A stretch of DNA of 41,334 nt from a virus: IMG/VR virus record IMGVR_UViG_3300045988_180547; one strand, 5' to 3'. The notes under the pieces were generated by a model, which worked only from the letters and a program-made list of their open reading frames with translations, had not been told where the DNA came from and did no database searches. Made by a program: the position numbers and the translations under genes. Shown piece by piece: positions 1-55 of the stretch (the stretch's first letter is position 1; each line of letters begins with the position of its first letter).

Positions 1-55
1 TGCTTTCAACTGCCCTAAAATAGCCACTTTTATGGTTTAGGTATTATCTTCCCCA
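1..55. repeat. 55-bp terminal direct repeat, copy 1 (identical to 41280..41334); att core or circular-contig k-mer overlap
   Basis: Read directly: bases 1..55 (tgctttcaactgccctaaaatagccacttttatggtttaggtattatcttcccca) recur exactly at 41280..41334. Confidence 0.85.

Follow-up and report, generated by a model that had tools for sequence, protein, structure and literature searches.

The stretch of DNA analyzed here (IMG/VR record IMGVR_UViG_3300045988_180547; 41,334 nucleotides, hereafter the window) holds the genome of a temperate tailed phage with a G+C content of 29%. The plus strand between 35.2 and 41.1 kb forms the lysogeny side, encoding a CI-like HTH repressor, an ImmA-type metalloprotease, a C5 cytosine methyltransferase, a GmrSD_N/NsnA-like protein, a HEPN protein, the integrase and a DUF2335 membrane protein. 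The lytic side occupies the minus strand, running from 34.9 down to 0.2 kb. It encodes a Cro-like HTH protein, an antirepressor and the replication genes, followed by packaging and head genes (small and large terminase, portal, Mu-F-like minor head protein, scaffold and major head protein) and by the tail sheath, tape measure, baseplate, tail fibres, endolysin and a holin-like gene ending at 232. Given this gene layout, the two ends of the window meet in the intergenic region between the integrase and the lysis genes, the position expected for an attachment site. With lysogeny, replication, packaging, head, tail and lysis modules all present, this is the complete genome of a temperate myovirus that has a tyrosine integrase; completeness at 41,279 bp of unique sequence had been predicted originally.

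At the nucleotide level, a megablast search with the whole window gave no match among 50,697 phage records, and the best match of the large terminase (65.6%) is to an uncultured faecal phage. The Fusobacterium temperate phages Funu2, JD-Fnp2/5, phiHugo and FNU4 share its host genus and have integrases 35-43% identical to that of the window, the closest among phage records being those of JD-Fnp2 and JD-Fnp5 (42.7%), but none matches the window at the nucleotide level. The window represents a separate, undescribed phage lineage, though one found widely in gut metagenomes, with hundreds of assembly blocks indexing its proteins.

Several parts of the genome vary. A block of 986 nt (2668..3653) is invertible and is bounded by 28-nt inverted repeats at 2668..2695 and 3626..3653, of which 18 nt are exact. 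The segment involves the tail-fibre gene (3161..3829, minus strand) and a silent cassette on the plus strand (2783..3169). Inverting the block in silico places the constant 59-aa N-terminus (...ETFKNFCPF) in frame with an alternative 225-aa Gp10_C-like C-terminus, and the segment resembles the G segment of Mu and the C segment of P1. Relative to the window, the block is flipped in prophages L011, L015, L017 and L025 and unflipped in L010, L013 and L018. Among the 277 ORFs neither a serine invertase nor a second tyrosine recombinase was detected, the Hin query used being approximate, and the 311-aa ORF adjoining the segment has no family match.

Cargo genes vary as well. Between the repressor module and the integrase (36451..39268, plus strand) the window carries defence-type genes for a C5 methyltransferase (DrmMII/type II MTase-like), a GmrSD_N/NsnA/PD-T4-2_A-like protein and a HEPN protein (RiboL-PSP/MAE_28990). 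Related prophages at the same att site carry other genes in this slot, namely T5orf172/MUG113, Abi_2, or GmrSD, HEPN and an N6_N4 MTase together; the slot is an exchangeable defence hotspot. A second variable slot lies at about 22903..22950, between a late regulator (23120..23545) and the small terminase (22445..22909), where alignments of relatives to the window break. Insertions found here, and absent from the window, encode a 343-aa protein, a DUF4325 protein and a 197-aa protein in L046, SocA_Panacea and a 323-aa protein in L048, and a Trypsin_2-like 268-aa protein in L050. Early genes matching window positions 23323..35775 also occur in L047 (ENA ERZ28623966 scaffold_626, 8286..20792). 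There they directly adjoin genes of host metabolism (SelA-like, KDGP aldolase, tyrosyl-tRNA synthetase) that take the place of the packaging genes. L047 is chimeric as a scaffold or else carries what remains of a truncated prophage at a different site.

The first 55 nt of the window, TGCTTTCAACTGCCCTAAAATAGCCACTTTTATGGTTTAGGTATTATCTTCCCCA, recur exactly as its last 55 nt (1..55 and 41280..41334), confirming the observation from which the original prediction started. When terminal overlap lengths of 20 to 399 nt were checked, 55 alone matched, and a search of both strands of the window found no third copy. An exact match of 55 nt has a probability of about 4^-55 per position pair, and a chance origin is impossible. 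It had been considered that the repeat might belong to a longer duplicated region unrelated to the phage boundaries. However, the bases immediately inside the two copies are unrelated to each other, so that the overlap is clean and not a piece of a longer duplication.

Integrated copies of the phage place the repeat in a genomic context. Looking up public assemblies with the exact DUF2335 protein and the exact holin-like protein yielded long host contigs of up to 2.77 Mb. Contigs L005 and L007 are 100.0% identical to window positions 30690..41334 (10.6 kb) and then run straight into a pyrE-like gene. On the integrase side, the prophages adjoin the 3' end of this gene, which encodes a 207-aa phosphoribosyltransferase and is named pyrE-like here because it is the last gene of a pyrB-pyrK-pyrD-pyrF-pyrC-pyrE-type cluster. 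On the lysis side they adjoin the upstream region of a gene for an 864-aa P-type cation ATPase. The view that the repeat is not tRNA-like stands, the target being the 3' end of a protein-coding gene; no tRNA or tmRNA target was found, and Rfam families are absent from both the window and the empty site. A riboswitch had been suspected in the leader of the neighbouring ATPase gene, for which there was no Rfam match. Based on an empty site in a metagenome-assembled genome (MAG), the nearest integrases and base composition, the host is Fusobacterium, assigned at the genus level.

Integration leaves the target gene intact. Read on the minus strand, the 11-nt core of the attachment site is TGG GGA AGA TA, the last three codons of the pyrE-like gene and two-thirds of its stop codon. 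The next base on the pyrE strand is G in the empty site, giving the stop codon TAG, and A in the lysogen, giving TAA. Since only the last base of the stop codon changes, the PyrE-like protein is unchanged after integration. The DNA downstream of pyrE is replaced by phage DNA bearing a probable terminator hairpin. A terminator scan of the window found five where 0.3 were expected; a G+C-rich hairpin with a T-run on the minus strand (41196..41216), about 107 nt downstream of the integrated pyrE stop codon, is probably the replacement terminator supplied by the phage. Phage 21 and e14 of E. coli integrate in icd and rebuild its 3' end, replacing a long 3'-terminal coding stretch, and are the nearest analogy. 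In both cases the crossover lies inside the end of an ORF, the phage substitutes the 3' end and the host gene remains functional. The extent of the replacement differs, however: phage 21 and e14 replace a much longer coding stretch of icd, whereas here it is minimal, confined to the final base of the stop codon together with the 3' untranslated region and a probable terminator.

Comparison of the junctions defines the core to the base. The 11-nt sequence TATCTTCCCCA (45..55, again at 41324..41334) is the sole sequence common to attP, attB, attL and attR, and it is shared across about 40 junctions, about 35 of them attL or attR and five of them empty attB sites. In attP, as found in L040 and by reading the window across its ends, the core lies between ...TTTATGGTTTAGGTAT on the left and GATAATTTTTCTC... 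on the right, while in attB it lies between ...GTCAAGAAGTTTATCC and AGTATCTGTATTT... on the same sides. The lysis-side junction (attL) has ...GTCAAGAAGTTTATCC to the left of the core and GATAATTTTTCTC... to its right; the integrase-side junction (attR) has ...TTTATGGTTTAGGTAT and AGTATCTGTATTT..., respectively. The flanks thus swap among the four sites as a reciprocal exchange within the core predicts. All lysis-side alignments end at window position 45 and all integrase-side alignments at 41334. Positions 1..44 correspond to the arm that integrated prophages have on the integrase side, and host DNA to the left of the lysis arm does not match them. The first copy of the repeat accordingly consists of 44 nt of integrase-side phage DNA (1..44) joined through the core (45..55) to the lysis side, and 1..55 read onward into 56.. 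is therefore the attP junction. Such a junction is confined to excised, replicating or tandem phage DNA.

These junction types recur in public data. When the metagenome collection was scanned once with a degenerate pattern that fits any of the four, 20 matches were obtained (5 attB, 8 attR, 7 attL and no attP), with the same 11-nt core throughout and with attL and attR on one contig in three cases. The viral-contig collection held no match to the exact 55-mer, the exact 37-nt attP junction or the degenerate four-way pattern. In the genome collection the one match was the empty site of the Fusobacterium MAG, which shares 13 nt and lacks the 55-mer; the ATPase gene follows pyrE by 240 nt in this genome, which belongs to a related but not identical lineage. 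A literature search on Fusobacterium prophage att sites or pyrE as attB found nothing relevant.

The integrase gene (39394..40428, plus strand) is a 344-aa ORF that is called as 339 aa in public assemblies. Its product matches the Pfam families Phage_integrase (1.2e-25) and Phage_int_SAM_3 (3.7e-5) and the PHROG 1 integrase (3.4e-63), has a SAM-like core-binding domain and, on alignment to solved recombinases, a complete catalytic set (R206, K236, H293, R296, H319 and Y329). At its N-terminus there is a match to Arm-DNA-bind_4 (E = 0.0074) whose score of 16.3 bits is below the Pfam cut-off of 22.3.

Around the core, two candidate core-type sites can be read from the sequence (43..61), ATTATC (43..48) and GATAAT (56..61), inverted about the 7-nt TTCCCCA (49..55), which we propose as the overlap region for strand exchange; the arrangement is the one typical of paired core-type sites. 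Positions 43..61 are invariant in all diverged relatives, and attB retains just TATC of the left half-site. Candidate arm-type sites with the consensus TGYGTKCTA occur in pairs, each spaced by 11 nt, about 100 nt from the core on either side. The P-arm pair (41221..41245, plus strand) comprises TGCGTTCTA (41224..41232) and TGTGTGCTA (41235..41243) at 11-nt spacing, and the P'-arm pair (148..172, plus strand), in the P-arm orientation, comprises TGCGTTCTA (151..159) and TGTGTTCTA (162..170). A 19-nt exact direct repeat links the P-arm pair with 148..166, and GTTCTATTTGTGTKCTACC is a conserved island in the otherwise about 80%-identical lysis arms of L028 and L033. A third motif, CATACCTAAA (41169..41178, plus strand), has a direct copy at 222..231, so that each side carries one about 160 nt from the core. 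An inverted copy, TTTAGGTAT (41315..41323), abuts the core. The copy at 222..231 is invariant within a diverged stretch, and the motif may bind an accessory factor or the integrase. In relatives with an about 80%-identical lysis arm, the repeat motifs and the first 31 nt from the core are invariant. In the lysis arm of L038, about 110 nt of additional sequence lie between the arm-type sites and the core, starting 33 nt from the latter, which would alter the core-to-arm spacing in that variant.

The limits of attP follow from the neighbouring genes and from relatives. On the lysis side, the limit is the last late gene, which encodes the holin-like small membrane protein (232..591, minus strand). 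Between the integrase gene and attP, the gene for the DUF2335 membrane protein (40690..41112, plus strand) and a 64-aa ORF (40518..40712) form an optional cassette. The corresponding block (40425..41162) is present in L001-L008, L026 and L035 and absent in L020, L023, L024, L027 and L039, all of which keep int. As relatives without the block retain 41163..41334, the integrase-side arm is bounded at 172 nt and attP spans about 350 nt. The original prediction placed attP in 41113..231 next to int, which holds and can be narrowed to about 41163..41334 plus 56..231, with the core at 45..55.

Judging from the motifs, the integrase would bind the arm-type sites (41224..41243 and 151..170) and the inverted core-type sites. 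Strand exchange is predicted to take place within the 11-bp TATCTTCCCCA, probably within TTCCCCA, with the identical core at the 3' end of the Fusobacterium pyrE-like gene. The attP is an ordinary member of the lambda type, as used by lambda Int, Tn916 Int and many Firmicute phage integrases. It shares with them an R-K-H-R-H-Y integrase, a short core identical between attP and attB, a pair of inverted hexamers separated by 7 nt, candidate arm-type direct repeats at a distance of about 100 nt on either side and a length of about 350 nt. It differs from these systems in that the arm-binding domain is a weak match, that site binding is predicted and that an excisionase was not recognised; such proteins are small and diverse, and there was no Pfam match among the small early ORFs or in the 64-aa ORF next to int.

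The 55-base repeat at the ends of the window is very likely the overlap left by assembly at k=55 of a circular temperate Fusobacterium phage genome, one of the two readings offered by the original prediction. It is an artefact of a known kind in which a single locus is printed twice, the copy at 41280..41334 being the same physical locus as 1..55, written a second time by the assembler. In metagenomic contigs, terminal repeats are concentrated at lengths of 55, 77 and 99 nt, since assemblers leave a repeat of length k when opening a circular template (CheckV, PMC8116208, Extended Data Fig. 3 legend). Like the 'DTR contigs' of CheckV (PMC8116208), the window has an exact repeat at its termini only, the length of the repeat equals the standard k of 55, and its joined ends give a sequence confirmed by an independent contig. 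Unlike in CheckV (PMC8116208), where the break point is described as random, the window is broken at the exact k-mer where the attP and attR paths diverge.

The independent contig, L040 (ENA ERZ28596545 scaffold_688, 41,334 bp), was reached through the exact tail-fibre protein (3161..3829) and is the one independent source of evidence for attP. It is identical to the circularised window over 20,669 bp, from 34440 through the junction to 13829, and carries the closed junction internally with a single copy of the 55-mer. By coordinate arithmetic the record starts near window position 24671, and from its total length of 41,334 bp it can be deduced that L040 represents this circle opened at a different position and likewise has 55 bases in surplus. 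A further relative is the Logan contig L049 (SRR31377718_1740, 41,287 bp), which is 99.99% identical to the window without gaps over the 20.8 kb compared. Coordinate arithmetic maps it to window positions 48..41334, that is, 41,279 + 8 nt. Going by these coordinates, L049 appears to be bounded within the 11-nt att core at both ends, as expected if a k=31 graph forks there too.

The place of the break may be informative in itself. In its entirety the window is probably one contig of a de Bruijn-graph assembler, in the style of SPAdes or metaSPAdes, whose final k was 55 and which followed a cyclic path through the 41,279-bp genome and rewrote its starting 55-mer at the end. After the last base of the 55-mer, the next base is G in attP and A in the integrated form (T in L007). 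The 55-mer would be the last k-mer, or vertex, common to the excised (attP) and integrated (attR) paths, with two exits. A cyclic path reported from such a forked vertex would begin and end with that vertex, as the window does; an arbitrary rotation would start at one of the two such vertices in about 2 of 41,279 cases. The contig likely broke at the att core because the graph forks there, and a fork at this site in turn suggests that both excised and integrated forms were present in the sample. As the 11-nt repeat is too short to produce a false cycle at k=55, reads spanning attP must have been present. The most straightforward interpretation is that the sample contained lysogens together with excised phage DNA. 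Whether the break on this 55-mer is in addition an assembly record of the Fusobacterium phage excising in the sampled gut community is a closer call, and we lean slightly toward that interpretation.

An overlap artefact could also arise if the attP-type junction came from tandem prophages in a polylysogen and not from excised or replicating DNA. Within a tandem array there is an attP-like junction too, and the resulting graph is identical, a cycle that is entered once and left once at the att core; a break at the fork fits it equally well. Nevertheless, this origin is improbable, since L040 is a stand-alone contig of 41,334 bp broken at an unrelated position, as from a free circular or concatemeric template, and no two prophage copies occur on any long host contig examined. 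The other reading in the original prediction, in which the window is an integrated prophage trimmed at its boundaries and the 55-nt repeat is the attL/attR core, fares far worse. The repeat does sit at the integrase/lysis junction, the usual position of an att site, and other integrases have cores of 40-60 nt. However, every integrated copy examined has host ...AAGAAGTTTATCC at the lysis-side junction where the window has 1..44, and the two prophage ends have only 11 bp in common. The empty attB, where a core of 55 nt would have a copy of the 55-mer, holds just those 11 bp; the 11-mer is present and the 55-mer absent in all five sites. With L040 joining both phage arms through a single copy of the 55-mer, we give a 55-nt core almost no credence. 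It is equally hard to credit that the repeat exists physically, as a 55-bp direct terminal repeat of a linear virion genome. Some phages carry short exact ones and terminal-repeat contigs are often so reported, but the length here equals a default k, and the repeat is found at the attachment site, some 19 kb away from the terminase genes, with its last base exactly at the attP/attR fork. The ends are not fixed, since another contig of this genome has its break elsewhere, and the packaging genes are of the Terminase_2/Terminase_3/SPP1_portal type, which goes with headful packaging and no fixed ends.

With the repeat read as a k-length assembly overlap of a circular genome, the window can be used as the complete, circularly closed 41,279-bp genome of an undescribed and widespread temperate Fusobacterium myovirus. 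It also cautions against taking k-length terminal repeats for att cores, as the true core here is five times shorter. An attachment site mapped to the base, with all four junction types documented, is useful for calling prophage boundaries and for integrase-based tools in Fusobacterium. If the relation between the break and the graph fork generalises, k-length overlaps that end on an integrase-adjacent fork would locate one boundary of the att core to the base and could be mined in public assemblies as a read-free marker of active prophages.
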